From a virus: a stretch of DNA of 64,000 bases. A program made the translations under genes and the position numbers. Numbering within the stretch: the stretch's first letter is position 1; the number at the start of each line of letters is the position of its first letter. The stretch lies in the IMG/VR virus record IMGVR_UViG_3300049489_000321, positions 1 through 64,000 of that record; one strand, given 5' to 3'. A model generated the notes under the pieces. It searched no databases, had not been told where the DNA came from, and saw only the letters and a list, made by a program, of their open reading frames with translations. Shown one piece after another: positions 1 to 17,416 of the stretch.

Positions 1-170
<170 letters not shown>

Positions 171-249
171 GGAAAGCTAAGAATCGCGAATGCTACCAGT
201 TGGCACTCTATATCATCAATGATCAATAACAAAGAAAAGGATAATACTC

Positions 250-405: not shown

Positions 406-759
406 CCATAAGCATAGGCACACCCCCTACCATAGCTACATACGCGCATCCATGGCTGTGTACCACACGTGTATGTATAGTGTATATAAATTGAGGTAAT
501 TTATGATCTTTTGTCTTTGTGGTGGTGTTGTAGAAGTTGGATTGATTAGTCTTATTGCTGTTGGTTGTCGTAAATGTTATCTTTGGGTAAGGAATAAGTT
601 TAGTGCGTAATTACTGTAATACTAAGCTTAATTATTGCGAAGATAAGCCTAGCTTTACGTGTGCCGAGCGGACTAACCGTGTAGATAAGTGTCCGTGTAG
701 GCATTGCCGCAATTGGCTTAGCGCTTGGCGTGCAGGTTATACCGCTGGTATTAAGACTA

Positions 760-951
760 ATGCGTGACTCTGTTTGTTGGCCACCTATCCTCGCGTTTTT
801 TAACGGCAACGAATATAAGGCTACACTTTGGTTTGAAACGCCTAATCCGTTGCTAGGTGGAATTAAGCCTAAGCTTATGATTAGACTGGGTAAAGAGCGG
901 AAATTATTTGAAATTATCACCGCGCAATTACGCGAAAACCTAGCAGAATAA
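760..951 (+). CDS. Orphan Xre/MbcA/ParS antitoxin C-terminal (DUF2384-like) domain protein
   Basis: FFNGNEYKATLWFETPNPLLGGIKPKLMI matches the FG..A..WL..PN..LGG..P pattern. Confidence 0.7.
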   Translation: MRDSVCWPPILAFFNGNEYKATLWFETPNPLLGGIKPKLMIRLGKERKLFEIITAQLRENLAE

Positions 952-998
952 TTCTGTATAAAACTCTTAGCCACAAACCACTAACCAAAGGAAATACA

Positions 999-1538
999 GT
1001 GGAAAAGCTTAAGAATAAGACTACGGTTGACGAGCTTGCGGAAATGTTTAAGCTTACCTCTTGGGATGAGCTTGACGATGCTAATTTTGATTATTACTGG
1101 CAAAGTGCGCATGAAGCTATGGCGTATCGCGATTTTGAGAATGACGCCGAGCGTGAAGAGGAAATGTATCGCGTACAGGACTCGACTCGCGACGAGCTTT
1201 TCGCTAATTGGTATAACGCTGTCATGAGCGTTGCTGATACCATGTTTGGAAAGCTTGAGCTTGACTTGGTTCCTGTCAAGGTTAAGGGTAAGGTTTCTGA
1301 GTTTCCGTTTGAGTTTGTGATTAAGCCCCGTAAGAATTGGAAGCATTCTTGCGAGGAAATCGTCAATCTTATCAACGGTGTTGGCTACTTCTATTTCCGC
1401 GATGTTAACGCGCTGCTTTCTAGCGGACCTTACACGCCTATGCAGGCTGTTCTTAATCACCTTGGTTATGTTAACTACTACCACCAGATTTACGGTAGCG
1501 AAAGCCCTTCAAATCTCTATGATAGAGCTTTCCGGTAA
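999..1538 (+). CDS. Hypothetical early protein (acidic)
   Basis: 179 aa ORF, RBS AAGGA, downstream of promoter motif. Confidence 0.8.
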   Translation: MEKLKNKTTVDELAEMFKLTSWDELDDANFDYYWQSAHEAMAYRDFENDAEREEEMYRVQDSTRDELFANWYNAVMSVADTMFGKLELDLVPVKVKGKVSEFPFEFVIKPRKNWKHSCEEIVNLINGVGYFYFRDVNALLSSGPYTPMQAVLNHLGYVNYYHQIYGSESPSNLYDRAFR

Positions 1539-1578
1539 TTCTGTATTAGATTCCTAGCCATAGCCATAACGAGGGTTT

Positions 1579-1794
1579 ATGCGGAACGTTGAGATTATTT
1601 CCAAGTCTAAGCGAATTGACGGCATGCAGTATCTTGTCAAGGTGCCAGAAGCTAAGATTGTGTGCGGCTATGACTTGGTAACCGTATTCATTAGCCATAA
1701 CGGTATGCGGCATTTTAAGAGTGCTAACTGTAGTCGCACGACACCTTTTCATGCTGGCGCGGCGGTTACCAAGCATCTTGCTACAGGTGGATAA
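1579..1794 (+). CDS. Hypothetical protein
   Basis: GAGG RBS, follows promoter motif. Confidence 0.7.
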   Translation: MRNVEIISKSKRIDGMQYLVKVPEAKIVCGYDLVTVFISHNGMRHFKSANCSRTTPFHAGAAVTKHLATGG

Positions 1795-1796
1795 CA

Positions 1797-2186
1797 ATGC
1801 GTAATGATGATGTTAAGCCGAATTTTTGTCTGATTGCGATGGACGAAACCAAGTGGTATAATCTTGGCGACGATGCAGTGTGGATTAAGCAGATTGTCAA
1901 TACTTACGTGTACAACCAGAACGAGTATACATATTGTTGTGAAATGACTCCTAGTCATTGGCTTGAACCAGTTTACACTAGTATTGTCGTTAATGACGAT
2001 ACCCCTGATGATATTAGGGAAGATCTTTACGATAAGTACGGCAACACTTCCTATGAAGGCTGCTACATGCACGTTAGCGCCGTTAAGGCTCACGTGGAAA
2101 AGAATCCTAAGATGCACGATGTTTACGGTGAAGCCGAGTCTATTGACGATGCTAGGGAATATTACCAGGGCAATTACGTTCTATAA
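1797..2186 (+). CDS. Hypothetical protein
   Basis: 129 aa ORF tightly packed with neighbour. Confidence 0.75.
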   Translation: MRNDDVKPNFCLIAMDETKWYNLGDDAVWIKQIVNTYVYNQNEYTYCCEMTPSHWLEPVYTSIVVNDDTPDDIREDLYDKYGNTSYEGCYMHVSAVKAHVEKNPKMHDVYGEAESIDDAREYYQGNYVL

Positions 2187-2231
2187 TTCTGTGTAAACGT
2201 CTTAAGCGTAACTCTCACAAAGGTTGATGCG

Positions 2232-2714
2232 ATGGACAATCAGGTTACTCGATTTGCTTGGGAAATCCCTAACTTCGCGTGTTGGGATAAGCAGCTTACG
2301 GATCGCAATACTACTTGGGCCTTTGCTATGGTAGGCGGCGGTCACCGGGATATGACTAGCATCGATGCCAGTAACTTCGAAGTGATTAAGGATACACTCG
2401 CCAGAATGGATCCGGATAATCTTAGCCATAGATATAGTAGGGCTAGTCATTGGGCGGTAGGCTGGTACGAGCACCTGCTAGTGGATACCACTAACCATAA
2501 GGTTATGGCTTTCCTTAAGGAGTGTATTGATAATCTTGAGGATTATCCTATTCTTAGTGAGGATCACCATAGCCAATTGGAGTATGATTCACACTGTGAT
2601 AACCAGTGTTTCGCAGAATGCCCGTTTGAACATTGCGAGACTTGTCACGATTCCGTGCTAGAGAACGAAACCCATTGCGAATTGCATAAGGATGATGGTA
2701 ATGACGGTGAGTGA
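2232..2714 (+). CDS. Hypothetical phage protein with C-terminal Cys/His cluster
   Basis: 160 aa; SHWAVGWYEHLL and YPILSED motifs; follows promoter motif. Confidence 0.8.
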   Translation: MDNQVTRFAWEIPNFACWDKQLTDRNTTWAFAMVGGGHRDMTSIDASNFEVIKDTLARMDPDNLSHRYSRASHWAVGWYEHLLVDTTNHKVMAFLKECIDNLEDYPILSEDHHSQLEYDSHCDNQCFAECPFEHCETCHDSVLENETHCELHKDDGNDGE

Positions 2715-2925
2715 GCTTAAGGCTATCCTTGACCGGTATCCAGATAATATGCCTGTTACTATCAGGCAATATACCCACGATTATTGGAATACGGTACGCG
2801 CGGATAGTGTCGATACAGTTGAGATTGTAGATCGTAAGTGGTCTAATTATCACAGGAGTTTTGTTATTGTGGACGAGTGTGACGATCAGGACGATCCTAA
2901 ATCTACCGTGCTAATCATTAGATAA
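2701..2925 (+). CDS. Hypothetical phage protein
   Basis: MTVSELKAILDRYPDNMPV, a common small phage protein start. Confidence 0.75.
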   Translation: MTVSELKAILDRYPDNMPVTIRQYTHDYWNTVRADSVDTVEIVDRKWSNYHRSFVIVDECDDQDDPKSTVLIIR

Positions 2926-2932
2926 TAGTTTC

Positions 2933-3006
2933 GCGCTCGTGACATAATGGCATTGTGTACCGGTCTTTTAAACCGATTTACGTAGGTTCAATTCCTACCG
3001 AGCGCA
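2933..3006 (+). tRNA. tRNA-Lys(UUU)
   Basis: Acceptor GCGCTCG/CGAGCGC, D stem ACAT/GTGT, anticodon loop CTTTTAA, T arm GTAGG-TTCAATT-CCTAC; no encoded CCA. Confidence 0.85.
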
Positions 3007-3308
3007 CAATAACAAGGATCTGGCGGAAGTTAAGACTTTTGAGGATCCCGATACCTTTGCAGCCTATCACAAAGCGGAAACCTACGCGCATTCACTCGGT
3101 TACAGTGTCGGCCGAATGGCACGGGATTTGCCTATCGGCATTAAGCTCGCCGATAAAGATCTAGGCGATTGGGATATTGCTAAATGGCACAATCTTAGCA
3201 ATAACGATAAGCGTAACCTTGACGGATTGATCATCGGTGATAAGCGTAACGGGCCTGTTACGGTCCTAATCGGCCGGTGAATAATTTTGTGTAACGATCC
3301 ATTTTGCT

Positions 3309-3419
3309 CTAGGTAAACCCAAAAGGTTTATAAACTCACGGGACCTAACCCGTACCGCAACGGTAACTAACCTGAAAGGTTAGATAGAGATCGGAATTAA
3401 CCGATAGAGCCGATTTTAC
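3309..3419 (+). ncRNA. Multi-hairpin element copy 1 (candidate small RNA)
   Basis: Near-identical to 5682-5793; consecutive stem-loops; directly downstream of promoter motif. Confidence 0.5.
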
Positions 3420-3454
3420 CATAACCATTAACCATAACCATAACGAGGGATACA

Positions 3455-3856
3455 ATGGCCAAGCGTATTAAGGATCGAGAGCACGTTACCACGGTTACAT
3501 ATGCCGTGTTTTACGCTGCTAATCCCGAGGGATCTAGCGGCCTTATGTTTGACTGCGATGCTAGCGGTAACGTGGATCGCAGCAAGCTAAACCCTTGCGC
3601 GCGCGCCAATCTGGCGAAGATCGAACGCGGCGAAATCCCTTATGTTTACAGCGAGCTTACTACGCTGGAAACGTCTTACGTGGATCCGGCTGAAATCCTT
3701 TGCGATTGCGGTGATACTGTGGCACTATACGGATTCACCAATACTTGCGACTCTTGTAATCGCGATTACAATATGAGCGGCCAGGAGCTTGCCCCACGAT
3801 CGCAATGGGGCGAGGATACTGGCGAAACCCTTAGCGATATCCTACGGATCCGATAG
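3455..3856 (+). CDS. Hypothetical protein with C-terminal zinc-ribbon
   Basis: CDCG...CDSC motif; GAGG RBS. Confidence 0.8.
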   Translation: MAKRIKDREHVTTVTYAVFYAANPEGSSGLMFDCDASGNVDRSKLNPCARANLAKIERGEIPYVYSELTTLETSYVDPAEILCDCGDTVALYGFTNTCDSCNRDYNMSGQELAPRSQWGEDTGETLSDILRIR

Positions 3857-3894
3857 CGATCTGCTATCATCGTGATATCACTATGATCTAAACA

Positions 3895-3932
3895 TATCAA
3901 CAAGTTAGCAAAATAACGCTAACTTGTTGATA
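3895..3932. promoter_or_regulatory. Inverted pair of IHF consensus sites
   Basis: TATCAACAAGTTA at 3895 and its reverse complement at 3920, both exact WATCAANNNNTTR. Confidence 0.65.
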
Positions 3933-3993
3933 TTACTTGCGGATAATTCTGTGTAAACGTCTTAGGCGTAACCCGAACGAAAGGCAACCGACA

Positions 3994-4122
3994 ATGCACA
4001 ATTATACGTTCCGATATTGGGATAAGGATCTAAACACTTGGGTTTACGTTTACCGCGACATGGCAAACGATGGCCGATGGATTTATACTTATTCCGCTGG
4101 ATTCTTCAATAGTTTGCGTTAG
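3994..4122 (+). CDS. Small hypothetical protein
   Basis: Promoter motif + GAAAGGCAA leader then ATG. Confidence 0.55.
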   Translation: MHNYTFRYWDKDLNTWVYVYRDMANDGRWIYTYSAGFFNSLR

Positions 4123-4188
4123 AATAATTCTGTGTAAACGTCTTAATCGCTAGGCAACAAAAACAACACCTAGCAGAAAGCAAAAACA

Positions 4189-5157
4189 ATGGCCCACGAA
4201 ATTCTCGACAATAATTGCGTTTTTTCCCTTAAGACTGAGGTTTCCGGTGTCCCGTGGCACGGGATTGGTACGGGGCTCGACGTTGTAACCCCCGATGATG
4301 TTAAGACTTACGCGAGTTTCGACCGCGAGATCGTGCTTAAGGATCTCAAGCTCGCCGGATCGGATGATCTGATCGAGGGATACAAGGCGAGTTTCGATTC
4401 TAAGCATGGGAAAACTCTTGGTATTGTGTCTGATAAATTCGTACTCTTGCAGCCTAGGGATCTGCTTAGCGCGGCGGAATTCCTTATGAATTCAATGGGC
4501 GCCGAGATTTCGTGCGCTGCTACGATCCGCGAGGGTAAGCGCGAATTCCTCTCGCTCGCTATGCCGGATTCGACCGTGGAAGCGCGCGAGAACGATTCTA
4601 TCAAGCGTTATTTCAATTTGGCGCAGGGTCACGATGGATCGCTCGCTGTTAGCGCGGGATCGAGTGACGTTCGCGTGGTTTGCGCTAATACCCTTAGCGC
4701 TTGGATTAGCGAGAGGAATGCCGTCAAGATCCGTCACCGCGGCGATATTGGCAAGGCGCTCGCAACGGCCGTCGCTGCATTTGCTAGCGAAACTCAGTCT
4801 AGGACCGAGTTTTATCAGGCGCTGGCGGGTCGCGCGGTTACCCCGAGCGAAGTTATCGCGTACTACTCTGCTTTGACCGGTGAGGATTACGAGGATTTCC
4901 GCAAGGCAAAGCGTGGCCGTCCGTCGCTTGGCGCTAAGATCGCGGATCTTCTCGATTCACCGGCTAACGCGGACGGTATCATCTGGCAAGATGCGGGAAT
5001 GCCCGCCACCGCTTGGGATGCTTACAATGTCGCGACGCAAGTTATCACGCATGGCTCGACTAGTAAGGATCCGCTTAACAATCTGCTTTTTGGCACGGCG
5101 CATAAGTATCTGATTTCAGCTGAAAAGCTCGCCTCTGATATGTTTCTCGCCGAGTAA
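4189..5157 (+). CDS. DUF932 / TIGR03299-like phage-plasmid protein
   Basis: VPWHGIG, LGIVSDKF..LQP, HDGS...VRVVCANTL, IRH, TAWDAYN motifs. Confidence 0.9.
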   Translation: MAHEILDNNCVFSLKTEVSGVPWHGIGTGLDVVTPDDVKTYASFDREIVLKDLKLAGSDDLIEGYKASFDSKHGKTLGIVSDKFVLLQPRDLLSAAEFLMNSMGAEISCAATIREGKREFLSLAMPDSTVEARENDSIKRYFNLAQGHDGSLAVSAGSSDVRVVCANTLSAWISERNAVKIRHRGDIGKALATAVAAFASETQSRTEFYQALAGRAVTPSEVIAYYSALTGEDYEDFRKAKRGRPSLGAKIADLLDSPANADGIIWQDAGMPATAWDAYNVATQVITHGSTSKDPLNNLLFGTAHKYLISAEKLASDMFLAE

Positions 5158-5166
5158 CAAGAAATA

Positions 5167-5210
5167 CACAGGGTTAGATCGGGAAACTGGTCTAACCCTG
5201 TGATTTCTCT
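5167..5210 (+). terminator. Putative intrinsic terminator
   Basis: CACAGGGTTAGATC...GGTCTAACCCTGTG stem after DUF932 stop. Confidence 0.6.
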
Positions 5211-5326
5211 ACCATATGTCAAGCGGCGGGAATTCGGGCGGATGGCTCGATAACGCGATCTTTTGTTTACTCCTAATGATTACACTAGGTTACCTTTTGC
5301 GATAACTTTGTGATATACTCTTAAGC

Positions 5327-5515
5327 ATGAAACCTAAAACCTTCCTAGCTAGGCTGGCGGATTGTAGGGATACGCGAGAAATCAGCAACCTCGCGTCATA
5401 CGCTCACGAAAAGCAGATCGCAGCGATCCGCGCGGGTTACGAATCTAAGGATTGGCACGATTGTTGGAAGGCCGCTCACGCTAGCTGGAAATCGATCCTT
5501 ACTCAAGGTAGGTAG
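5327..5515 (+). CDS. Hypothetical protein, probably leaderless
   Basis: ATG 24 nt after start of promoter motif. Confidence 0.7.
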   Translation: MKPKTFLARLADCRDTREISNLASYAHEKQIAAIRAGYESKDWHDCWKAAHASWKSILTQGR

Positions 5516-5518
5516 ATC

Positions 5519-5653
5519 ATGGGAAAGCCTAAGAAAAACCGCAAGCGTAATTTTGACGCAATGAATGCGCTCGCGCGTAAACCTGCAACCTTCAAGGATC
5601 GTCGCGAGCCGCGTAAGCAGTCTAACAATTGGCGCAATCATTTGCCCGAGTAA
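5519..5653 (+). CDS. Small basic hypothetical protein (44 aa)
   Basis: MGKPKKNRKRNFDAMNALARK...; stop codon is the TAA of the next promoter motif. Confidence 0.6.
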   Translation: MGKPKKNRKRNFDAMNALARKPATFKDRREPRKQSNNWRNHLPE

Positions 5654-5681
5654 TTTTGTAGATTGTTCTTTAGCGAAAGCC

Positions 5682-5793
5682 CTAGGTAAACCCAAAAGGT
5701 TTACAAACTCACGGGACCTAACCCGTACCCACGGCGGTAACTAACCCAAAAGGTTAGATAGAGATCGGAGTTAACCGATAGGGCCGATTTTAC
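5682..5793 (+). ncRNA. Multi-hairpin element copy 2 (candidate small RNA)
   Basis: Direct repeat of 3309-3419, differences mostly in loops and linkers. Confidence 0.5.
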
Positions 5794-5835
5794 TAGTTCA
5801 AGGCGGAAATCATCAGAATGATTATGGAGTAACGT

Positions 5836-6312
5836 ATGCTGGCGGAATCTCTCAAAGACTGGCGAAAGGTAGCAGAACGCAATGAAATCAATGGGATCAA
5901 GCGTAGGGTTTATCTGGCGAATGCCACCGAACGATCTTGGCATGATAATTGCTTCGTTTTTTGGTTTGGCTCTTGCGGTACTACTTACGTCCTAGCCTAC
6001 GGTAAAGGCATTGATTCTGCTCTGGAATCCGCCGCGCAATGGTTAGCTGATTACGCTCCGGGGCATATAATGCCGCATGATTCCGAAGAATTGCAGGAAT
6101 TGCTTAGGGAAGCAAGGATCGAATTCCGTAAGGAAAATCAGCGTTTGGAAGATCCGGACCATGGATCCGAGGATATGTCACGGGTTTATGAGTCTGCTAC
6201 CGCCGATCTCACCTATACGGAATCAGGTTACCTCACGTCTTACGATTGGGGAATTGCGCTCGATAACCCTAACCCAGCGGAATTGCTAGATTTTGTAAAG
6301 GATAGGCGCTAA
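5836..6312 (+). CDS. Hypothetical protein
   Basis: 158 aa ORF, GGAG RBS. Confidence 0.8.
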   Translation: MLAESLKDWRKVAERNEINGIKRRVYLANATERSWHDNCFVFWFGSCGTTYVLAYGKGIDSALESAAQWLADYAPGHIMPHDSEELQELLREARIEFRKENQRLEDPDHGSEDMSRVYESATADLTYTESGYLTSYDWGIALDNPNPAELLDFVKDRR

Positions 6313-6528
6313 CGTGGTGATTTTGTTTACTGTCATTCTCGCGTGGTTTGTCGGATTCGCGATGCTCGCAATGGTTCGGACCTAGCGTTAGAACGCTATA
6401 GGCTGGCGTATGGGAAGCTTTTAGCGTCCTAGCGTGGATAGGGTATACCCGCGCCTTTCGCTGCTTAAATCGAAGCCTATCGCCTCGGATAATTTTGTGG
6501 GAAAGTCTTAGGCGAAAGGTAGGGAAAA

Positions 6529-6723
6529 ATGACGGTTACGACATTCTATCGAAAGCTCGAATTTTGCGATCGTTCTGATCTCGCTGATTTGCTTGACTAC
6601 GCTCGCGCTAAGCGTGGAAAATTGCTTAATAGCACGCTAAACCATACTAAAGATTGGAATCATCTAAAGGAATGGCATTTGGCATATAAGACTGTTTCCA
6701 ATCGAGTAGGATGGAAGCGGTAA
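6529..6723 (+). CDS. Hypothetical protein, weakly resembles 5327-5515
   Basis: Follows promoter motif; TF..KL..C......L..YA and KDW pattern shared. Confidence 0.7.
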   Translation: MTVTTFYRKLEFCDRSDLADLLDYARAKRGKLLNSTLNHTKDWNHLKEWHLAYKTVSNRVGWKR

Positions 6724-6809
6724 CTTTGTAGGAAAGTCTTAGTCGCATACGGCAAATAGCCGGCCAGTAGAAGCGGCGTAGGATGCAACCATAACAAAAG
6801 GCAAACACA

Positions 6810-6986
6810 GTGGACCATAAGAATACGGATCGAATGATGGATCGGGCAATGCATGCGATTTGCCCGAATGACTACGAAAGGTTCGCGCTTAGGCTGGCGT
6901 ATACTCAAGATCCTGAATTGGCCCTGGTATTTGCCGATCAGCCTATCCACGATCTTGCTGATATCCTTCGCGTTATCGGTGATTAA
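6810..6986 (+). CDS. Hypothetical protein (58 aa, GTG start)
   Basis: AAGGCAAA leader; TAATG overlap with next gene. Confidence 0.6.
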   Translation: MDHKNTDRMMDRAMHAICPNDYERFALRLAYTQDPELALVFADQPIHDLADILRVIGD

Positions 6987-7210
6987 TGCTTATTAACTGG
7001 ATTCCATGGAATGACGCGGACGACGCAACGGATCGCGTTGATTCCCTTGCTAAATCCGCTTCACAGATCCTGAGTGAAAATTGTGAAATGGCATACAGTT
7101 GGACCGGCGATACACTTGTAATTGCTACGAAACTCTCAAACGGTACAACCGAACTAATCCATTGCAAAGTAATTGCGGAAGGCAAGATTCATGCCAATGA
7201 TCATCATTAG
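6986..7210 (+). CDS. Hypothetical protein
   Basis: Translationally coupled ORF. Confidence 0.65.
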   Translation: MLINWIPWNDADDATDRVDSLAKSASQILSENCEMAYSWTGDTLVIATKLSNGTTELIHCKVIAEGKIHANDHH

Positions 7211-7592
7211 TCGGCCACCTAGCATGGCACAATTGTTGCTTGAGATCCTTGATAACCCGTGGGGCAAGGGCCGACATTCGGGGAATCCAGATTATCGCGC
7301 CTGCTATCTTCTCGAAACCATTGACAAAAACCGCGAGCGGGACCACGGGATCCCTCGCGTGTTTGAGTAGGAACAACGACAATGATTAAGCCAGTTTGCG
7401 CGGGTAATTGCCTATCTAATTGTAATTCCACGGAAGTATTCGCGATCGACTCAAAGGGTTATGTTTATTGCGAAAAGCATTTCTTTCGTGGTCGCAAAGT
7501 AACAAAAGCAGAGCGAAAGCAGCTAATTGCAGGAAAACCGATCCGATACGATAGATTTTGAGTAATTTTGTGGGAAAGCCTTAGGCGCAAAC

Positions 7593-8027
7593 GTGAAAGT
7601 ATGTATATCCTGCAAAGTATTAAAGAGTAAATCCAGTGATTTCTCTATCAATTCCCGTCGTAAAGACGGATACAATACCATATGCAAAGAATGTAAAAAT
7701 ACATACAACGTTGCCTGGTATCAGCGAAACAAAGACGAGCATAAAAAGCGTAATAGGATAAACAATAAAAAATACAAGGATTTAGCGTATTCAATTGTAC
7801 GGGAAAAGAAAAGCAAACCTTGTAAAGATTGTGGTATTAGCTATCCTTATTACGTTATGGATTTCGATCATTTGCCTGGATTCACGAAACAATTCTGTAT
7901 AGCTACGGCTATATCAAGAGGCCGCCCTATCTCATTGATTCTTAAAGAAATCGAGAAGTGCGACGTAGTGTGCGCTAATTGTCACAGGATTAGGACGTTT
8001 AACAGAACTAACATTGCTTCCACCTAA
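7593..8027 (+). CDS. HNH endonuclease
   Basis: CKDCG...MDFDH...EIEKCDVVCANCHRIRT; N-terminal CxxC pairs; AT-rich relative to flanks. Confidence 0.9.
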   Translation: MKVCISCKVLKSKSSDFSINSRRKDGYNTICKECKNTYNVAWYQRNKDEHKKRNRINNKKYKDLAYSIVREKKSKPCKDCGISYPYYVMDFDHLPGFTKQFCIATAISRGRPISLILKEIEKCDVVCANCHRIRTFNRTNIAST

Positions 8028-8083
8028 GGATAGGGTGCCGGCCTTCTAAGCCAGCTAGTAAGGTTCAATTCCTTATGGAAGCA
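8016..8083 (+). tRNA. tRNA-Arg(UCU), short D-arm region (possibly pseudo)
   Basis: Acceptor GCTTCCA/TGGAAGC, anticodon loop CTTCTAA, T arm TAAGG-TTCAATT-CCTTA; only 15 nt between acceptor and anticodon stems. Confidence 0.6.
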
Positions 8084-8433
8084 CTAACAGGACGCACTTA
8101 GGGATCGAGTCCTATCTAGTTGTAATAACAACGAAATCCCCGGATAGGTGCAAAGCCTATCGCATTTGAATAACTTTGTGAGATCGTCTTAACCGTAACC
8201 TGAAACGGAAGTCAAACGCAAGTGAAAAGCTCAAAAAATGACTTGATCGAGGCCCTTAGGGCAATCGCGGTTATGCAGCAAGCTTACGGATCGCAGGGTG
8301 ACGCCTACGTGGCCCGCGAATGTCACAGGATCGCGGTAGGCGCTTTGCACGACGGTTGGCACGGCGTATCGCGTAACATAAAGCGTTAATTAATACAGTT
8401 AAAAACGCAAATCTAAGCGAAAGGCAAACGAAA

Positions 8434-8616
8434 ATGGCACGTAAGAGTAAATGGGATCGCGCATTTGACGCTTGTTTCTATGCCAATTCCCACGGAGTCC
8501 AGTTTAACATTATGGATCTGTCAAAGCTCCGTCGCGCGGTTAATGACGCAACGCTTTCTGGCGTAGATCTTGAAAGCGCCGTCAAGGCGGCAATCCAGGT
8601 TTACAGGACTAATTAA
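8434..8616 (+). CDS. Hypothetical protein
   Basis: GAAAGGCAAA leader. Confidence 0.7.
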   Translation: MARKSKWDRAFDACFYANSHGVQFNIMDLSKLRRAVNDATLSGVDLESAVKAAIQVYRTN

Positions 8617-8619
8617 GCA

Positions 8620-8802
8620 ATGGAAAAGCCTAAGCCTAATCCTACTCCTAAGCAAGTGATCGACGCGATCACGCAAGCTTTCCCCAATGATTGCGAGCGT
8701 ATCCTTAGGGATATGCGATGGGATTCTATCAACGGCTGTTATATGTTTGATTTCGCTGGTATGTATGTCGGTTGCGAGCTTGACGGTTACATTCACTCTT
8801 AA
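8620..8802 (+). CDS. Hypothetical protein
   Basis: Packed ORF ending next to promoter motif. Confidence 0.7.
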   Translation: MEKPKPNPTPKQVIDAITQAFPNDCERILRDMRWDSINGCYMFDFAGMYVGCELDGYIHS

Positions 8803-8994
8803 TAATTTTGTGAGATCGTCTTAACCGTAACCCAAGCGGAAAGGCAAAGCCAAATGGAAGCCGTTAATATCTTTATCCTGGAAATGCTGTTTACCGCTAC
8901 CGTGGCGGCATTCCACACTAACCCCACGGAAGCTAACAATCGCGCGGTAGTCCAGGTGTTTACTACCCTTTACGCTATTCGCGGAGCTTAAACA

Positions 8995-9177
8995 ATGACC
9001 GATAGAGATAAGCAGATTAAGGAGCTTGAGCAATCCGGCCACCTTGATCCTAATTGCAGAGGATGTAAGGAGTTTTACGATCATCCCGATCTCAGGCCCT
9101 TTGCTCCATCCCATAAGGCTATGCAATCGTGCCAATCTGGCAAGCGTAATCATTGCACTTGCGACACTTGCTTCTAG
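8995..9177 (+). CDS. Cys-rich small hypothetical protein
   Basis: CxxC...PSH...C.SG..NHCTCDTCF. Confidence 0.75.
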   Translation: MTDRDKQIKELEQSGHLDPNCRGCKEFYDHPDLRPFAPSHKAMQSCQSGKRNHCTCDTCF

Positions 9178-9281
9178 CAAAAGGTATACCATAGTGGCCC
9201 ACCTAATCATCGGGATGATCCTGCTAGCGTTTATTCAGGCAAGAAACACTCCACCCTTTACCTAAGCCATAGGTATACCAA

Positions 9282-9476
9282 ATGCCCGATAACATTGCGT
9301 TTTACTACCGTGGAATGATAGAGCGGCCTTCAAAGCGTGGATATCGCTGGCATTACGGATATTCCGCGAATAGCGACGACGGTAATCCGCTTTACCCCTG
9401 GAATACGAAAGCAGAATGCAAGGCATATGCCAAGGCGCAAGGTAAGCAGGCTAGCTTTATCAGCGAGAAAGGCTAA
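9282..9476 (+). CDS. Hypothetical protein
   Basis: 64 aa ORF on operon strand. Confidence 0.7.
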   Translation: MPDNIAFYYRGMIERPSKRGYRWHYGYSANSDDGNPLYPWNTKAECKAYAKAQGKQASFISEKG

Positions 9477-9495
9477 CCGTAAGGAATCTAGCACG

Positions 9496-9660
9496 ATGGA
9501 TCAACGTACAAAGAATCGAATCAAAGAGCATGCCAAGTTAGGACACAAGCTAACAGAGTCGAAAGCATTGACTACCAGGCCAGGGCAAGCGTTTTTTAGG
9601 TGCGATTGCGGATGGTTAGGATGGTTGACAGTCAATTCCGCTGGTAAGTTAACCACTTAA
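9496..9660 (+). CDS. Small hypothetical protein (CxCGW)
   Basis: AAGGA RBS; GH...CDCGW. Confidence 0.6.
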   Translation: MDQRTKNRIKEHAKLGHKLTESKALTTRPGQAFFRCDCGWLGWLTVNSAGKLTT

Positions 9661-10079
9661 CACAATAACCAGTAAAAACAGTGGAAAACTAAACAATTAC
9701 TAGGAGTCCAGCACCCCCCGAGCTATAAGTACCGGAAATTATTATAGGTTGCAAAATTATGCCCGTGGTAAGCGTATGCAAGTCATGCGCCAGGCCTTGA
9801 CTCCCCGGACGCGGGGTAGGGTGCGAATCCCTTGGCGGGTCTCTTTGCAAATATTGTACCAATGGGATCGCTTGCCTGGTAGCGGGCTAGACGGGTCCGT
9901 TTCCCATGGTCCTGATACCGCGTAGAACGCGATAGGCTGCGATATGGGAAGCTTTCCAGGCATGGGGCTATCGTCGGCGTCTAGCTGGAATCCCTAGCCT
10001 ACAGGAGCGTAGGACGGTCCGATAACTTTGTGGGATGATCCTAGACGCAACCTGCAACGCTCCAACGGAAGGCAAAGCA

Positions 10080-10235
10080 ATGTCAAAGGTTCCTAGCAGC
10101 AAGATCCTCACCGCTAACGCGCGCCTGCATAAGCTTGAACTCAGGCTCGCGATTCTCACTAAGGAATGCCGCGAGATCCCTCCTACGCTCGCGCACGAAA
10201 TCCGCGTTGCGCGGCTGATGATGGTCGCTAAGTAA
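10080..10235 (+). CDS. Hypothetical protein
   Basis: Promoter motif + GGAAGGCAAA leader. Confidence 0.65.
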   Translation: MSKVPSSKILTANARLHKLELRLAILTKECREIPPTLAHEIRVARLMMVAK

Positions 10236-10379
10236 GCGGAACGATTAGACTATGCGTCGGGTGGCGCGGACCATCCTACAATGGACAGCGGTTATAACGC
10301 TTCCCCGACGCATAGTCCCTCACAAGTAATTCTGTGGGATCGTCCTAGGCGCAATCTCTCAAACGGAAGGCAAAGGCAA

Positions 10380-10568
10380 ATGACTACCAATCGCCGGATC
10401 TACATTCTTTGTCCTAACTGCAATCAGGATGCCATTCTTACCCCCGACGGGGCAATCGCTTGGCATGAAGGTACAAAAACTGCAATGTTGCCGGCGCCGC
10501 CTGCTAGCCGTTGCGCGGTTTCCGGCATGACTGAGAAAGCGGCGGATCGGCTGGTTTGGGGCAAGTAA
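10380..10568 (+). CDS. Hypothetical protein (CPNC)
   Basis: Promoter motif + leader. Confidence 0.65.
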   Translation: MTTNRRIYILCPNCNQDAILTPDGAIAWHEGTKTAMLPAPPASRCAVSGMTEKAADRLVWGK

Positions 10569-10881
10569 GCGGAATCACTAACCCTCCCCCGATTTGGGGG
10601 AGGGACGGGACTAGGGGTTTCAACGGGTTAGATCCCACGGATCGGTGGGGGAATGACTGCAAACGCTGGATTGTGTGAGATCGGGCGCTAAGCTTTCCGA
10701 TGATTTGCAGGCGATTTGGCGATTGCTGGCGAGCTTTTCCGGGGCTAATGGGCCGATGGTAGGGTCAAAAGATCGTCGCTCTGAAGCGAGCTAATCGATT
10801 CATGCAAGAATCGTGCCAAGTAGAGAGTAATTCTGTGGGATCGTCTTAGGTGTCCCGACGCTGAAACGAAAGGCAATCACT

Positions 10882-11088
10882 ATGGATTTCGATGATTTCT
10901 GTCGCATGCTGCTTAACCGTCGGAAGCTTAACGGTATGTCGAATGCGGATATCGCTCGCGATCTCAAGCTTGGCAACGATCACGCTCGGCAAATGGTTGT
11001 AAACATTATCGATATTCTCGATCTTCCGGTGCCGACGAGCAACGGTGAATCCATCCCGCCTGTATCCGGTGAAATCGATTGGCGTTAG
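10882..11088 (+). CDS. Small HTH-like hypothetical protein
   Basis: GMSNADIARDLKL. Confidence 0.6.
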   Translation: MDFDDFCRMLLNRRKLNGMSNADIARDLKLGNDHARQMVVNIIDILDLPVPTSNGESIPPVSGEIDWR

Positions 11089-11151
11089 GCGAGTAATTCT
11101 GTGAGATCGTCTTAGGCGCAACCTGCAACCTGCAACGGAAGGCAAAGACAA

Positions 11152-11412
11152 ATGGACAATATCATTCTCGCGCTCGCCACCGAGTATCGTCGCCAGTGTA
11201 AGATCGCTCACGGTTGGCGCGATTACAACGGTCGTTTGACCGGGATGGGGATGGACGCGGTGCGCAAGGCGGATAAGTGCCTGGATATGCTGCGCGCTTA
11301 CGGTTATCGTTTCGACTCGGAAGATAGCCTGTTTTTCGATCATAACCTCGCGGAATCGCTTGATATTCCAACGGTCCTGTGGCCGGAAGCGGCCGACGAT
11401 CAGGACGATTAA
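11152..11412 (+). CDS. Hypothetical protein
   Basis: Promoter motif + leader. Confidence 0.75.
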   Translation: MDNIILALATEYRRQCKIAHGWRDYNGRLTGMGMDAVRKADKCLDMLRAYGYRFDSEDSLFFDHNLAESLDIPTVLWPEAADDQDD

Positions 11413-11934
11413 CTAGCTGAAATCACTAACCCTCCCCCGATTTGGGGGAGGGTAACAAGCAAAGGGCATGCCAATGCGAGTCAACGCACTCGGCCAGTGT
11501 CACCCGGAATGCAGGTTCTGTGCCGTCGAATTTTGGGCCTGGTATAAGGCTAGGATGACACAAATGGCGCGACCTATGCCGGGTGCGCGTGAATCGTTCG
11601 CCGATGCGGCTGCTAGATCGGTGCGTCCTAAGCGATAGGCTGCGATTTGCGAGCGTTTCAGACAACGGACAGGGAAAGACTAGGGTACGGGTCCAGTGAC
11701 CTTCTACGCGAGGTAGGACGGTCCGATAATTCTGTGTAAACGTCCTAGGCGCAACCTGCAACGCTCCAACGGAAAGCGATAAAACAATGATCAAGGTACG
11801 CATTAATAGGATTGGCAATCTCTACGTTCTAGTTAACGCGGAAAATGGCTTTCCAGTGTCTACTCCTACGGATAATCTGCCCGCTGCAAAGGCTGCGCTT
11901 AGCAGGCTGATTTCGCAGGGAAAGGCTAAGTAAA

Positions 11935-12156
11935 ATGATTACTATTGAACGCAAAGGTAGAAGTGTGAGTGGCGGGCGCCTTTGGCACGTTTTTTGCGAC
12001 GGTGATCTCGTGGGGCACGTGGTTGAGCTTTCCGTATCTGAACCAATGTTTGGATCTGGCGCACCACTGTATGCGGTCCACGCGGATCGTGCAAACCCGG
12101 GCAGTTATGAGCTTGTGTCGGATTGGAGCGAAGTCCCATCCTATTTTAATCAGTAG
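11935..12156 (+). CDS. Hypothetical protein
   Basis: Coupled to small ORF 11787-11933. Confidence 0.65.
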   Translation: MITIERKGRSVSGGRLWHVFCDGDLVGHVVELSVSEPMFGSGAPLYAVHADRANPGSYELVSDWSEVPSYFNQ

Positions 12157-12471
12157 GTTAGCGGATCGTGCAAAGGCTAGAGCGTAGGCAAACCGTGGAA
12201 AACGCGATTTGCCTACACTAGTAATGTCGGGCGCTTACGCTTCAAACTCGCTACGCTCGCGCATTTTTCCCTAGGGATCGGGGAAAGGGTAGGGGCAAAC
12301 AAAAGGTGCTTAAATCGAAGCCTATCGCATCATGCAAGAAACATGCCAAGTAATGTCGAGTAGCTATTAGCTAGACTGTAGTGTTATAAGTAGGTATTAG
12401 GTGATGCAATCTGTATGCCAATGATTAGCCGATCTGCGGGCAGGCCCGCCGTTCGTCTCCTGCTGGAGTGA

Positions 12472-12493
12472 TTAGGACACTCTCACAAAGTTA
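12472..12493 (-). promoter_or_regulatory. Reverse-oriented copy of putative phage promoter motif
   Basis: Reverse complement TAACTTTGTGAGAGTGTCCTAA. Confidence 0.7.
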
Positions 12494-12567
12494 TTGGCAC
12501 GGATCGTGCTAAGGCACGTTTATTGCTAGGACACCCAATCGGATAACTTTGTATAAACGTCCTAGGC

Positions 12568-12702
12568 ATGACTCACTCAATCATCTGGAATCGTAACGGT
12601 TGGCAGGTCCTCACCACTTGCGGTGATCTTGAGGTTTCCGCTGCAATCTTCGATACTTACGGTGAGTGTCTTTCCTATTACGTTGAAATGATGGGAGCGT
12701 AA
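12568..12702 (+). CDS. Small leaderless hypothetical protein
   Basis: ATG 24 nt after motif start. Confidence 0.6.
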   Translation: MTHSIIWNRNGWQVLTTCGDLEVSAAIFDTYGECLSYYVEMMGA

Positions 12703-12703
12703 C

Positions 12704-12946
12704 ATGACGCATCATGCTAAGGTCGCGAGACTATTGAAGCTTCACCGAATGATTCGCGCTCGCGCGCATATCTGGCACGATAATTGCGAGAAGTACGCAG
12801 ATCCGCGCATGCCTCGAATGGATCGTTGGATGGAAGAATACGACAGCATGCGTCTTTGTAACGGAACCTACAGTGACGCTTGGCTCGAATATTGCGGGAT
12901 CACTAACGGTGCCGTGACGCATCATGCGGGCGATTTGCTTTCATAA
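12704..12946 (+). CDS. Hypothetical protein
   Basis: GGGAG RBS, coupled. Confidence 0.7.
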   Translation: MTHHAKVARLLKLHRMIRARAHIWHDNCEKYADPRMPRMDRWMEEYDSMRLCNGTYSDAWLEYCGITNGAVTHHAGDLLS

Positions 12947-12989
12947 ACTGTGCCGAGTAGCGGAATAATTCTGTATGGGAGTCTTTGAC

Positions 12990-13190
12990 ATGCACCACGC
13001 GAAACCCGAGGATTTCACTAGGTGGGCTGAAAAGGCCGCTTCTATGTCACTGGAATCATTGAATTGGTCTATCAATGATTGTTGGCAGGCTAGCCTTTGC
13101 GCTCGCGAAATTGGCAACGCAATTGCAGAGGGTAGATATCTAGACGAAATGTATGCATACGCTAGCGAGCGCAAGAATCGTGCCAAGTAG
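12990..13190 (+). CDS. Leaderless hypothetical protein
   Basis: ATG 24 nt after motif start; GRYLDEMYAYASE. Confidence 0.7.
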   Translation: MHHAKPEDFTRWAEKAASMSLESLNWSINDCWQASLCAREIGNAIAEGRYLDEMYAYASERKNRAK

Positions 13191-13248
13191 AGAGTAATTG
13201 TGTAGGCTAGTCTTAGTCACAAGCAACGCAAACCCCGGAGCTAAGACA

Positions 13249-13431
13249 ATGACGCTTTTCGAAGAGTTTGAGGATCGTTACGGTGATGAGCGTATCTCTG
13301 CGAAGGAAGCGATTAGGCTCTGTAAGTTTCATGGCACGGATATTGCCGAGTATCACAAGTATTCGGGATACACTGCTAAGTTGTCGGAATCATACGATTG
13401 GCAGGCAATCCTGATCTGGCTCGGTTACTAG
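13249..13431 (+). CDS. Hypothetical protein
   Basis: GGAG RBS; C-terminal ILIWLGY. Confidence 0.7.
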   Translation: MTLFEEFEDRYGDERISAKEAIRLCKFHGTDIAEYHKYSGYTAKLSESYDWQAILIWLGY

Positions 13432-13469
13432 CAACAAACGTACCAACTCAGAAAACAAGGAAAGTCACA

Positions 13470-13691
13470 ATGACTGTCGCTATTTACACGTTTGTTTGTA
13501 CGCTTGAAGATGGAATCCGTAAGGATCGTTTGAGTAACTTCGAAATGGCACTCTGTGCAAAGCACGTGCCAAAGAATGCTAAGCTTGCACGTCGCGCGCC
13601 AGATTGTCACTGTGAGCTTTGTACCTACAATGAAGATCGAGAGTGTAACAAGGGATTTGGCACGAATGATGAATATCACGGTGGTTGGTAA
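13470..13691 (+). CDS. Cys-containing hypothetical protein
   Basis: AAGGA RBS; stop is TAA of promoter motif. Confidence 0.65.
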   Translation: MTVAIYTFVCTLEDGIRKDRLSNFEMALCAKHVPKNAKLARRAPDCHCELCTYNEDRECNKGFGTNDEYHGGW

Positions 13692-13799
13692 TTTTGTAGG
13701 GAAGTCCTAGTCGCAACCTCTGAATCCCGACGAGTCGTCTAAGTAGGCTAAATCATTAACCCTCCCCCAAATCGGGGGAGGGTAGAAAGGCAAGCGTAA

Positions 13800-14018
13800 G
13801 TGCTCAAATTCACTAATGAAGAATGTAACAAGCTGGAAACACTCAAGCTTCTAGTTGACGCAGAGTGGCAAAATTTCGGAGGTTATCTTAGATACACGGA
13901 TGCTATGAATATTGTTGGGCTTTCTACGCTGAAGAAAGCTATCAAGCTGAATTTAATCGTCCATTTCAAGGGATCGGATTGGATCGATACTTGCTACACT
14001 AACAGACTGTACAAGTAG
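13800..14018 (+). CDS. Hypothetical protein
   Basis: GAAAGGCAA leader. Confidence 0.65.
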   Translation: MLKFTNEECNKLETLKLLVDAEWQNFGGYLRYTDAMNIVGLSTLKKAIKLNLIVHFKGSDWIDTCYTNRLYK

Positions 14019-14379
14019 TTGTAATTACATAAACGCTCTAGAATGACCTAGGAGCGACGATTTAGCAGGGTAGGCTAGTCTGCTAGGGTAGAGAGAAACC
14101 CGCTCCTACGTGAGCCTATAGCGTTATACGAGAGATCTAGTCAATCTTCCTGGTAGCAAAGGACTAAACCACTGTGATCAATGATTACAATACGTTGGAA
14201 GCCGTTAGGCATTTGCTCGTACTTGGCCCGATTGTTGCTTTGTCTGTCATACTCTTGACCGGAATCCTGTATCTGGCGATTCGCCAGTAAATACAATTAC
14301 TTAAGCTAAGTAGTTGAAAACACTTAGAGTAATTGTGTAGGCTAGTCCTAGGCGTACCCCCAACGAAAGGCAAACGCAA

Positions 14380-14643
14380 ATGACTAAGATCCTTAAGAAT
14401 GCCGGTGTACAGCTTATGGGCCGGTCGATTCGCGTGTTTGACCGCCAAACTAACAAGGATATCGCTGACTTCGACATGCCCGATGTCGATGATGAGACCC
14501 CCGATTGGATTTGTGATGCAAAATTCGATAGTTGGCTGATCAACGTGCAAAGGACTGTTAATTCAAAGGGTTACGACGTTACGACGGTGTACGCTGTTAA
14601 CTCGGATCGTCCTAACTCGCGTAAGATCATCGCAATCGGCTAA
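14380..14643 (+). CDS. Hypothetical protein
   Basis: Promoter motif + leader. Confidence 0.75.
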   Translation: MTKILKNAGVQLMGRSIRVFDRQTNKDIADFDMPDVDDETPDWICDAKFDSWLINVQRTVNSKGYDVTTVYAVNSDRPNSRKIIAIG

Positions 14644-14717
14644 CTAGTTGAAATGCCATGGTAGTAATTCTGTAGGGAAGTCTTAGGCGCAACCTCTCAC
14701 AAACGGAGAAAACGAAA

Positions 14718-14963
14718 ATGACCGCTAAGACCCGATATGTTGGCATGAAGGCCGCAATGCACCGCCACCGCGACGCTTGCGAGTGGTCGGAAGGTAGCAG
14801 CGAACGTATTAGCCGAGCTAATGACACGCTTCGAGCCGACATTGCTAAGTATGGGGAATTGTACTACAACGCGCTCTGTACCAGTCAAGGTGCTGATATC
14901 CTTGCCAATCGTCGCCCGGGCGACGCAATCGCTCGTGCCCGTAGCGCATCGATTCCCTTCTAA
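14718..14963 (+). CDS. Hypothetical protein, last gene of early block
   Basis: Promoter motif + GGAG RBS. Confidence 0.7.
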   Translation: MTAKTRYVGMKAAMHRHRDACEWSEGSSERISRANDTLRADIAKYGELYYNALCTSQGADILANRRPGDAIARARSASIPF

Positions 14964-15202
14964 GTACCTGATTTCCCATGGTGACGCTCCCTAGGCAACT
15001 AGGGAGCAACACCTGTTTTCAGGCACTTAGAAGTCTTTGCAGCCTGGTAGCAGGGGTCAAAAACGTCAAGATCCGCCCGATCCTACCGTAGCAATTACAC
15101 CATGGTAGGACCCTAATAGGCTACGCTCAAGCGATTTCCGCCCCGAGTAGCGTCCTAGCTAGGGTCAAAAGATCGTCGCTCTGAGAGCATCCTACGCATT
15201 CA

Positions 15203-15988
15203 AGCAATCCCTATGCCAATCCTCGATCTCTAGCACGTCTTATGCCAACCATGGTAGTACACTATCCTACACCCTACTACCTATTAGGTGGCACGACTCT
15301 TGCTAAGGCACGCTTATTGCTAGGACTACTGTGTTGGCATACTTGTTGCGAGCATCGAATCTGGTACGAATACTGCATATAGCACTACCATGGTACGGAT
15401 CTTGCATCAATACAGGCACTTGCAACAATCGTGCCAAACATACATGTATGCAAAAGACGTACCATGGTGACTGTTTGCAAGAATCATACCAACTATAGGA
15501 CGTGCAATAAGCATACCAGTCACAGCTATTGCAACATTTATGCCAATTATCAACGTATTGCAAGAATCGAGCCAAAAAAGACACACAGCAGTACGTGCAA
15601 ATTCTATGCCAACCCTACCATGGTGCAACATCTGTGCCAAAACAGGGGGTATGCAATAACAGGGCCACTACCATGGTAGGACACTATACTACACAGTAGG
15701 CACAACTCTTGCTAGTACGTACTAGTTGGCACGTATAGTGCTATAGGCATACATATTGCACACAATAACAGCATTTTGGCACGCTTATTGCTAAGGCACG
15801 AATGTTGCAACAAAGCTAATTTGGCACAGTACGTGCATACACTGGGTGGCACACCCCCTGCATACCCTACCATGCTGGCATCTCACTTGCATACGACCGA
15901 CATTCACCTACCCCACCCTAGTTCGCGTGGCACGTTTCTTGCATATCCACCCGTATCCCGTCTCAACCGAAGTGGCACGATACTTGCA
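15203..15988. repeat. Non-coding array of 26 sigma54 -24/-12 consensus sites (WGGYN-N7-TGC, GG-N10-GC)
   Basis: 16-mers at (-)15203,15232; (+)15289,15306,15335,15362,15391; (-)15421,15449,15476,15503,15530,15559,15596,15624,15652; (+)15698,15727,15745,15777,15794,15822,15847,15876,15928,15973. Confidence 0.9.
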
Positions 15989-16216
15989 CCATGAGCTATC
16001 TATCTGAAATTACAAGCACTGTGTGATTTCAACGAGTTGCTTTCCCGAGGAGTCCCACTTGTATAGTTTATAAATTTGTGAAACTTATTTTTTGATATTA
16101 TAAAGATTTCAAATACTTAGATGAATGAGGTAGTTTAGTGCTGTGTCTATAGCACTACTTCAGAACAGTAGTAGATTGGTTTTCGTATTTAGTTATTATA
16201 AAAAAATACGAAATAC

Positions 16217-16453
16217 TTAACGTAGGTGCTTGGCAGATTCTAGTATAAGTACAAAAGCATGTTCGTCTGCTACGTCCTTACACTCCCGTTGAGTCTGTCC
16301 ACTACCTATTCGCTTGTTCTCGTAGCTAACTATATACGACTCTGGTCTGGTTAAACCACCGTAAATAGGGGATATTACATACTTACCGCAATGAGAGTAT
16401 ACGTAGTGTTCCTTAGCACGCTGCCACTCTATAATGCTCTGATAGCAGTTCAT
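16217..16453 (-). CDS. Hypothetical protein
   Basis: Last ORF of the long minus-strand block. Confidence 0.7.
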   Translation of the reverse strand: MNCYQSIIEWQRAKEHYVYSHCGKYVISPIYGGLTRPESYIVSYENKRIGSGQTQRECKDVADEHAFVLILESAKHLR

Positions 16454-16454
16454 G

Positions 16455-16661
16455 TTAGTAGAATTTCATCCACGTGAAGTAGATGGGAATGTCTGGGTAT
16501 AGTAGCGCCATGGAAGCACGTATTAGGTTAGCATCTTCTTTGTTGTAGCACTCAAACTGGATGCCGTCTCTAGCCTTGGGGTTTGTACGGTACTCATGTG
16601 CAGCTTTAGCGCATAGCTTAAGGTTACTTCTTGTAACTAGTTGATGTTCGTAGTCATTCAT
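16455..16661 (-). CDS. Hypothetical protein
   Basis: Coupled to Thg1 gene. Confidence 0.7.
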   Translation of the reverse strand: MNDYEHQLVTRSNLKLCAKAAHEYRTNPKARDGIQFECYNKEDANLIRASMALLYPDIPIYFTWMKFY

Positions 16662-17416
16662 CTCTTTCCCTCCACTGTAGGCTCCATTAGATAGACTAGG
16701 GTGTTAATGTAGTTGCGGTCTTGTGTAAGGATAGGCATGTCTAGGTCTTCTCGCCACTCAGACCGTTCAGCACTACCGTTGTAGTACTTATACTTAACAA
16801 TCGCTATACCGCGCTTCTGCGCCGTAGGGCAGTCGTTCCAGTTAACGTTCTCCCTGGCTAAGAGCATGTTCTGCATCATGTTGCTGTTAACCTTGTGTAA
16901 TTGCTTGTGACTAAAGTACTTCTGCGCTAACATTGCGATGCTGTTCCTAGTTGCATCTTGTTGTCTCCAGATGAAGTAGTTACAGACTTCCGACTGTGGG
17001 ACGTTCCAAACCCTACAGTCGAAGCTAGGGAGGCTTTTGGGGTAGCCGAACCTCTTTACGTACTCTTCGTAGAACTTCACGCTGGCCATGCTGGCGGCGA
17101 TAGAGCACGTCTTTTGTACTTCGTTGTCAAACCAGCCTTGGGTCTGTAGGTTCTGGTAGTCCACCAATAGCAACGATATCTCGTCGCTTTGAGTGTAAGC
17201 AATCTTACAACCGGAGACTTCCTTACACAGATACTTGGCAGTCTCCACCATGCAGTGAACCATACGCTCATCTAAAGGTCTTTCCATGCCTCTAGTAAAC
17301 GTGTGGAAAGCCCTACCGTCTAGCCTCATTAGCACGGGCATTTTGGATACTAATTTTGTCCGGGGAGTGTTTTCGTACGATTTCATACGATCCCCTAAGC
17401 TATCTTTATTACTCAT
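16658..17416 (-). CDS. thg1: tRNA(His) guanylyltransferase Thg1-like protein
   Basis: LGDRMKSYE, RLDGRAFHTFT, YTQSDEISL, FDCR, NYFIWRQQDATRNSI. Confidence 0.95.
   Translation of the reverse strand: MSNKDSLGDRMKSYENTPRTKLVSKMPVLMRLDGRAFHTFTRGMERPLDERMVHCMVETAKYLCKEVSGCKIAYTQSDEISLLLVDYQNLQTQGWFDNEVQKTCSIAASMASVKFYEEYVKRFGYPKSLPSFDCRVWNVPQSEVCNYFIWRQQDATRNSIAMLAQKYFSHKQLHKVNSNMMQNMLLARENVNWNDCPTAQKRGIAIVKYKYYNGSAERSEWREDLDMPILTQDRNYINTLVYLMEPTVEGKR

Follow-up and report, generated by a model that had tools for sequence, protein, structure and literature searches.

In cosB of phage lambda, with its R sites and an IHF site, and in the pac sites of P1 and SPP1, phage-specific repeats are read by the small terminase. 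Phage T5 carries the non-coding iss region at the right end of its terminal repeat, with eight DnaA boxes, and a role in DNA entry has been hypothesised for it (bioRxiv 10.1101/866236). How linear phage DNA escapes end-loading nucleases at entry and how long terminal repeats are delimited are old questions that are still open (for T5, see 10.1101/866236). In bacteria, sigma-54 binding is stable and mostly silent (PMC4591121, PMC4551910), and in E. coli its intragenic binding does not block elongating RNA polymerase (PMC4591121). Here we describe a locus that probably brings host sigma-54 sites and a phage genome end together. The stretch analysed, which we call the window, covers positions 1 to 64,000 of a virus record of 147,530 bp, and it holds 26 sigma-54 (-24/-12) sites at 15203-15988, each with the exact 10-base spacing GG-N10-GC and consensus flanks. 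The array is laid out as follows.

15203 to 15988, no strand assigned: the array, 26 sigma-54 consensus sites (motif scan)
15203 to 15247, minus strand: block 1, 2 sites (motif scan)
15289 to 15406, plus strand: block 2, 5 sites (motif scan)
15421 to 15667, minus strand: block 3, 9 sites, with one exact IHF consensus at 15548 between two sites
15698 to 15988, plus strand: block 4, 10 sites, terminating at the sharp edge of the gradient
14653 to 15878, no strand assigned: ACCATGGT palindrome, a second, lineage-specific motif (exact copies at 15099, 15248, 15387, 15461, 15617 and 15670; variants at 14653 and 15867)

A sequence-only reading of this DNA had reported the array, and our scan found all 26 GG-N10-GC sites again at the same coordinates and in the same order of orientations (2-, 5+, 9-, 10+). 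Dinucleotide shuffles of the stretch (n=1,000) gave a mean of 0.2 sites and a maximum of 3, and no match was left in the array stretch when the spacer was changed by one or two bases in either direction. The site logo reads T-G-G-C-A-Y-R, four loose bases, T-T-G-C-W, which is the sigma-54 consensus; outside it the flanks carry no information. Simple tandem duplication, which that reading had also dismissed, is ruled out because all 26 16-mers are distinct and identity among the sites is low (0.35 for the 4-base spacer, 0.27 for the 3' flank); internal duplications are short only. Distances between neighbouring sites are 25-30 bp in 16 of 25 pairs, and mostly 27-29 bp. We do not count helical phasing (mean 0.55-0.67 turn) as support, since the search pattern itself restricted the spacing. 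An independent Logan contig (SRR35532292) keeps the identical 1,254-bp distance between the genes flanking the array, which excludes an assembly artefact. The roughly 790 bp are indeed devoid of a credible gene: the array ORFs find no support from known families, the two that we inspected lack a ribosome-binding site, and Rfam gave no RNA family in the stretch. The ACCATGGT palindrome occurs in six copies in or beside the array and two elsewhere in the whole genome, and is a candidate site for a phage protein, for example the small terminase.

Given a host with rpoN, which we assume, host sigma-54 very probably binds the array sites, to judge from their sequence. Such binding is likely to be silent, because the sites match the full consensus, face both directions, drive no gene and come with no detectable activator. 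Across the whole genome we detected no sigma-54, RpoN DNA-binding domain, sigma-54 activator (PF00158) or sigma-70 region 2. An ordinary promoter was rejected: there is no co-oriented gene or RNA downstream, and the nearest genes on either side run towards the array. A role in transcriptional control, with promoters fired by a host activator or nearby phage promoters occluded, has precedents in phage YuA, which has one active sigma-54-like promoter (PMC10914365), and in E. coli, where sigma-54 represses overlapping promoters (PMC4551910); in addition, four of the sites precede early promoter motifs by 25-49 bp. We nevertheless consider it highly improbable, as the array faces no gene, 11 of the 26 sites point backwards, activator sites would not fit into the spacing, and the orientation relative to neighbouring operons is mixed across phages. 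At 27-29 bp, there is simultaneous room for about 12 of the 26 sites with a 50-bp footprint or 16 with a 30-bp footprint; we infer from this crowding that sigma-54 would bind without core polymerase, or that the array would speed loading rather than reach full occupancy.

We searched IMG/VR for three sigma-54 sites in a row and obtained at least 119 viral stretches. Among the matches listed, the arrays fall into about 47 groups with few or no common proteins and 31-64% GC, mostly with 3-12 sites each, and the whole viral records have one array zone each. A control pattern with the spacer lengthened by one base gave 18 IMG/VR matches, 87% of them in long ORFs and 60% exact repeats; with the true spacing, both figures were 10% among the matches listed. 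The bacterial genomes (all GTDB, 596 Gb) yielded 20 three-in-row matches, several of which are plain tandem repeats. Such arrays are common in viral contigs and hardly occur in bacterial genomes. A few bacterial genome bins (L236, L244 and L247, from Bacteroidota and Saccharibacteria) contain phage-like degenerate arrays, which are possibly prophages or mis-binned phage contigs and could hint at hosts. One viral locus, L353, has two arrays of opposite orientation 2.5 kb apart (G030, 55294-55442 and 57896-58209), upstream of the terminase.

The activator domain PF00158 was absent from 28 other viral records. An identical motif in phages of 31-64% GC with unrelated terminases points to a conserved host protein, for which sigma-54 is an exact fit. 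The sites might instead bind a phage protein (a terminase subunit or an initiator) or another host protein with a motif that resembles the sigma-54 box by chance, the region being a pac site or an origin. This is very unlikely, since the sites of phage proteins change by lineage and the sigma-54 motif is fixed over some 47 unrelated groups among the matches listed; besides, the sites are an exact-spacing sigma-54 consensus, the genome has no RpoN DNA-binding domain and the array has no DnaA box. In favour of it, the array is non-coding, occurs once per genome and sits at a strand switch, and DnaA boxes are enriched 7-fold over background beside the sigma-54 sites of other phages (21 of 119 loci among the matches listed). 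Such boxes accompany sigma-54 sites at L202 2023-2045, L234 543-603 and L255 ~3980-4090, and at L114, L116, L136, L170 and L177; they also occur in Limnohabitans phage DC31 and, close to its left end, in Vibrio phage Wyman. Along with transcriptional control, a phage-protein site fits the data least.

The genome around the array is that of a SPO1-like myovirus, with a capsid protein 43-46% identical to those of SPO1 and relatives and a match to the GpA-type terminase ATPase. Despite these matches it is too distant and too rearranged to be filed in the Herelleviridae. Unlike in SPO1, the large terminase (121238-123088) follows the replication genes, far from the portal (53 kb). We found no close relatives; the best Thg1 homologues reach 52-65%, with no array adjoining them. 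In relative G002, the large terminase has the same neighbours, and a gene-poor region (L213 14680-16950) carries scattered sigma-54 sites and an enriched ACATGT word that resembles the ACCATGGT palindromes. A GCT-rich low-complexity coding repeat spans the record ends (window 1-170 and the end of the record), which suggests that the record is a circular map opened at this repeat. Small plus-strand genes, all headed by one promoter-like motif, extend from about 125 kb across the record end to 14,963, and the minus block ends at 16,217, so that the two converge on the array as the sequence-only reading had it. The surroundings of the array are as follows.

949 to 14963, plus strand: early-type small genes, each headed by TAAYTYTGTR-N6-TCYTAR and transcribed towards the array; the last gene is 14718-14963
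3117 to 14239, both orientations: decaying tail of 29 further sites, about half of them inside small plus-strand ORFs
15989 to 16216, no strand assigned: AT-rich edge (30-32% GC at 16001-16200), site-free for the next 16 kb; predicted genome end or terminal-repeat border
16217 to 17416, minus strand: end of the converging minus block, with Thg1 (tRNA-His guanylyltransferase) and two small genes; given for context only

The motif TAAYTYTGTR-N6-TCYTAR heads about 40 genes (in the window at 949-14686, at 125-147 kb, and at 23863(-), 31242(-) and 47312), and IMG/VR contained no exact match to it when extended with downstream bases. The early region also holds a pair of nearly identical, structured intergenic elements, each about 110 bp long (3307-3420 and 5684-5790). 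Other genes of the window encode a DUF932 protein (4189-5157), Thg1 (16658-17416), an IMP dehydrogenase/GMP reductase-like protein (45588-46676) and an inorganic-pyrophosphatase-like domain (57649-58365). Regarding the host, nothing in the genome data points to Myxococcus or the enterobacteria.

The array itself was described correctly by the earlier reading, but its extent was understated, as 29 further sites lie at 3.1-14.2 kb, where shuffles give a mean of 1.4. Allowing one mismatch genome-wide, 50 of 52 near-consensus sites are within bases 1-16,050. Leftwards from 16,050 the number of sites per 2 kb is 27, 13, 5, 4, 2, 2, 2 and 0, and rightwards it is 0 for 16 kb. The genes at 125-147 kb have the identical early promoter motif and almost no sigma-54 sites; density therefore tracks the distance from a landmark at about 16.0 kb and not gene class. 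From this edge and the layout of the Pseudomonas phages K8 and PAK_P1 (see below), we predict a genome end or terminal-repeat border at 15989-16216, and the position around 16.0 kb is probably the physical end of the phage genome.

The gradient bears on the function proposed by the sequence-only reading, a sponge that titrates host sigma-54 or core polymerase and silences sigma-54 regulons, increasingly so as genomes replicate. The silent binding on which it was built is likely to be right, given the consensus match and the lack of a driven gene or activator, but the titration role is disfavoured by the gradient and by the position of arrays relative to terminases and terminal repeats. Each genome copy would bring about 55 sites (twice as many should the region be a terminal repeat), sigma-54 forms closed complexes that stay bound without transcribing (PMC4591121, PMC4551910), and the sites are found in ORFs and in both orientations with no activator, all as expected of a sponge. 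However, a sponge needs no particular place, and from it one would expect neither a sharp edge nor a gradient nor a link to termini. Most other arrays have 3-12 sites, which is few for titration in comparison with 135 on the E. coli chromosome (PMC4591121), and here only about 12 of the 26 sites could hold a 50-bp footprint at a time. Hence, we regard titration as quite unlikely to be the function. The other suggestion of that reading, a roadblock between convergent transcription units, is weakened because there is no elongation block in E. coli (PMC4591121) and some arrays sit between divergent, not convergent, genes.

Among the matches listed, the large terminase is the sole protein family common to many array loci. 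The array is upstream of the terminase in all 20 other viral records with a terminase match, at 0.7-13 kb. In whole records, the distance between them is 1.5-19% of genome length, with a combined p of ~1e-9 that comes from rounded distances, estimated lengths for fragments, one end-joined record and partly non-independent groups. In a large marine group, the array lies about 1.2 kb upstream of the large terminase, directly before a small-terminase-like gene, and outside this group it is upstream of the terminase in 18 of 19 loci. The supposed terminase of locus L112 was identified as PhoH instead, and L112 was left out of the terminase tallies. The sites point towards the terminase in some groups and away from it in others, so they are not terminase promoters.

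Outside the marine group, extra sites trail away on one side: there are 38 in 66 kb away from the terminase versus 17 in 108 kb on the terminase side, and the misassigned L112 contributes 11 of these 17. No such tail is seen in the marine group. Five loci (L112, G033, G037, L192 and L196) have an edge and a tail as in the window. Furthermore, among the matches listed, 39 of 49 marine loci and 8 of 30 others have a G-run beyond the array, on its terminase side, and a contig end lies no more than 300 bp away from 27 of 116 arrays where 7 would be expected. The DNA upstream of the terminase is where many phages cut their ends. In many phages it also serves as the main control region, so the upstream position alone is not decisive for a terminus; contig breaks at repeats can arise for technical reasons, and the TerL of the array phage is at 121 kb, far from the array.

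We then looked at cultured phages. In K8 (KT736033), whose ends have been mapped by restriction and sequencing (PMC4773840), each copy of the 1,188-bp terminal repeat has 7 sigma-54 sites (137-1099 and 92828-93790), which amounts to 14 of the 21 sites genome-wide (p 2e-10, counting one repeat copy). From the left end it is 137 bp to the first site, and the last one stops 89 bp before the right end. These sites are in both orientations, 5 of them inside annotated ORFs, and are 55-280 bp apart, versus 27 bp in the window array. All 7 are kept in PAK_P1 (67902-68851, which maps onto the K8 terminal repeat) and 6 of 7 in PaoP5, which is 78% identical over the repeat. The order of small plus-strand early genes, sites and minus block is the same in the three phages as in the window, although they are unrelated to the array phage, and in K8-type phages, as in the array phage, the terminase is tens of kb from the sites. 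The sites are not confined to ends, because a second cluster of 3 perfect sites (K8 80273-80458) is located where the early block begins, 12-13 kb inwards from the right end. This cluster is also found at PAK_P1 55436-55621 and PAK_P3 50797-50961, and falls in a non-coding gap in K8 and PAK_P1. The Pakpunavirus papers covered, PMC4773840 among them, make no mention of sigma-54 sites in terminal repeats.

Elsewhere, Vibrio phage Wyman has two perfect sites per terminal-repeat copy, and rV5 has one in a 2.6-kb non-coding gap between converging blocks that is a presumed, not a mapped, end. A dense 27-bp array was present in none of the 25 cultured phages scanned, which included SPO1, Nachito, LysYB1, phi92, YuA, phiCbK, HTVC115P, HMO-2011, phiM6, CRP-235, nickie, R9Y3, Wyman, DC31, Kp7, rV5, PVP-SE1, T5, CR3, Felix O1, ICP1 and PAK_P3, and BLASTN of the array against cultured phages gave no match.

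A single idea, that the sites mark virion ends, accounts for the arrays linked to terminases, for K8 and for the one-sided gradient. We propose that the array would be a cis-acting platform located where the virion DNA ends, in the terminal repeat or at its border. Host sigma-54, either free or in a closed complex with RNA polymerase, would bind there without transcription. As sigma-54 is already in the cell, the end could be coated during entry, ahead of any phage gene expression. The coat might slow end-loading nucleases (RecBCD/AddAB) or end-sensing defences, and, acting as a ratchet, might keep the DNA inside the cell once it has entered. We give somewhat less than an even chance to this reading, a platform coated by host sigma-54 that most likely protects or anchors the genome end at entry, and its weakest step is the protective or anchoring role, which we infer. 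RecBCD is able to displace bound proteins and, together with the lack of an elongation block in E. coli, this means that protection may be slight. Differences among close capsid relatives also count against this reading: G018 has an array, G002, G003 and G012 have scattered sites only, and G004 and G005 have none above control. The rpoN-linked phage resistance of Salmonella was considered as support and discarded, as it is explained by RpoS and glutamine (PMC8744999).

The same positional evidence, that is, the terminase-adjacent arrays and the K8 repeats, would suit a packaging or terminus signal, in which sigma-54 bound on the concatemer slows the packaging motor or a repeat-duplicating polymerase and fixes the cut together with ACCATGGT. 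The G-run just past the array on the terminase side agrees with this, as do the lineage-specific palindrome interleaved here and the related ACATGT enriched in the matching G002 region. Yet marking a cut makes a 12-kb tail inside early genes superfluous, relatives with similar terminases have no sites (Pelagibacter phage HTVC115P and phiM6), and orientation to the terminase is mixed. A packaging signal explains the position equally well as an entry coat does, but not the tail, and we consider it unlikely. The roles considered here need not exclude each other.

Extended to other phages, the entry-coat reading would imply that many unrelated lytic phages have independently evolved end-capping with hijacked sigma-54, shielding or anchoring the incoming DNA before any phage protein is made; this is conceivable, but we lean against it. 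If true, sigma-54 would act as a structural DNA-end protein, a new role for the factor and a new strategy for phages, in which silent binding is put to a non-transcriptional use. It would explain how phages get through the first seconds when they inject no end-protection protein. Arrays of this kind are frequent among uncultured phages and could then serve as a sequence marker for genome ends and for rpoN-carrying hosts. The proposal is directly testable in K8 and PAK_P1, which grow on laboratory Pseudomonas aeruginosa and have the sites in mapped ends. As receptor, both use the O-antigen and not the RpoN-dependent pili (for K8, PMC4773840).

When compared with known systems, the array shares the consensus, the exact spacing, the in-gene sites and the probable silent binding with bacterial RpoN promoters and silent intragenic sites (PMC4591121). 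Bacterial sites are single, whereas here 26 are packed ~28 bp apart, face both ways and come with neither a gene nor an activator. Phage YuA (PMC10914365) is lytic and uses a host sigma-54 site, but has one working promoter and no array. An iteron replication origin was rejected, as all 26 units differ and occur in both orientations, and the primase is at 47.6 kb. Lambda cosB and the P1 and SPP1 pac sites are alike in having repeated protein sites near packaging genes or the genome end, with help from a host protein; their repeats are phage-specific, while the array motif is a host sigma-factor consensus common to unrelated phages. We rejected a small-terminase array of the pac/cos type because TerL is at 121.2-123.1 kb and the motif is not lineage-specific, which ACCATGGT could be.

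The nearest analogue is the T5 iss, also a repeat- and palindrome-rich non-coding stretch with an array of host-protein sites. It differs in using DnaA instead of sigma-54, and T5 has no sigma-54 array; a T5-type injection stop was rejected here, since 1-22 kb of the array phage contains no DnaA box. In line with the sequence-only reading, which knew of no such phage system, a literature search that covered few subscription papers found no description of sigma-54 site arrays in phages. The Pakpunavirus terminal repeat resembles the window in its conserved cluster in both orientations between plus-strand early genes and a minus block, but it has 7 sites in 1.2 kb versus 26 in 0.8 kb, belongs to an unrelated family and has no long early-gene tail. 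We therefore class the array as a new kind of phage cis-element with a putative function, and the link between such arrays and genome ends is new.
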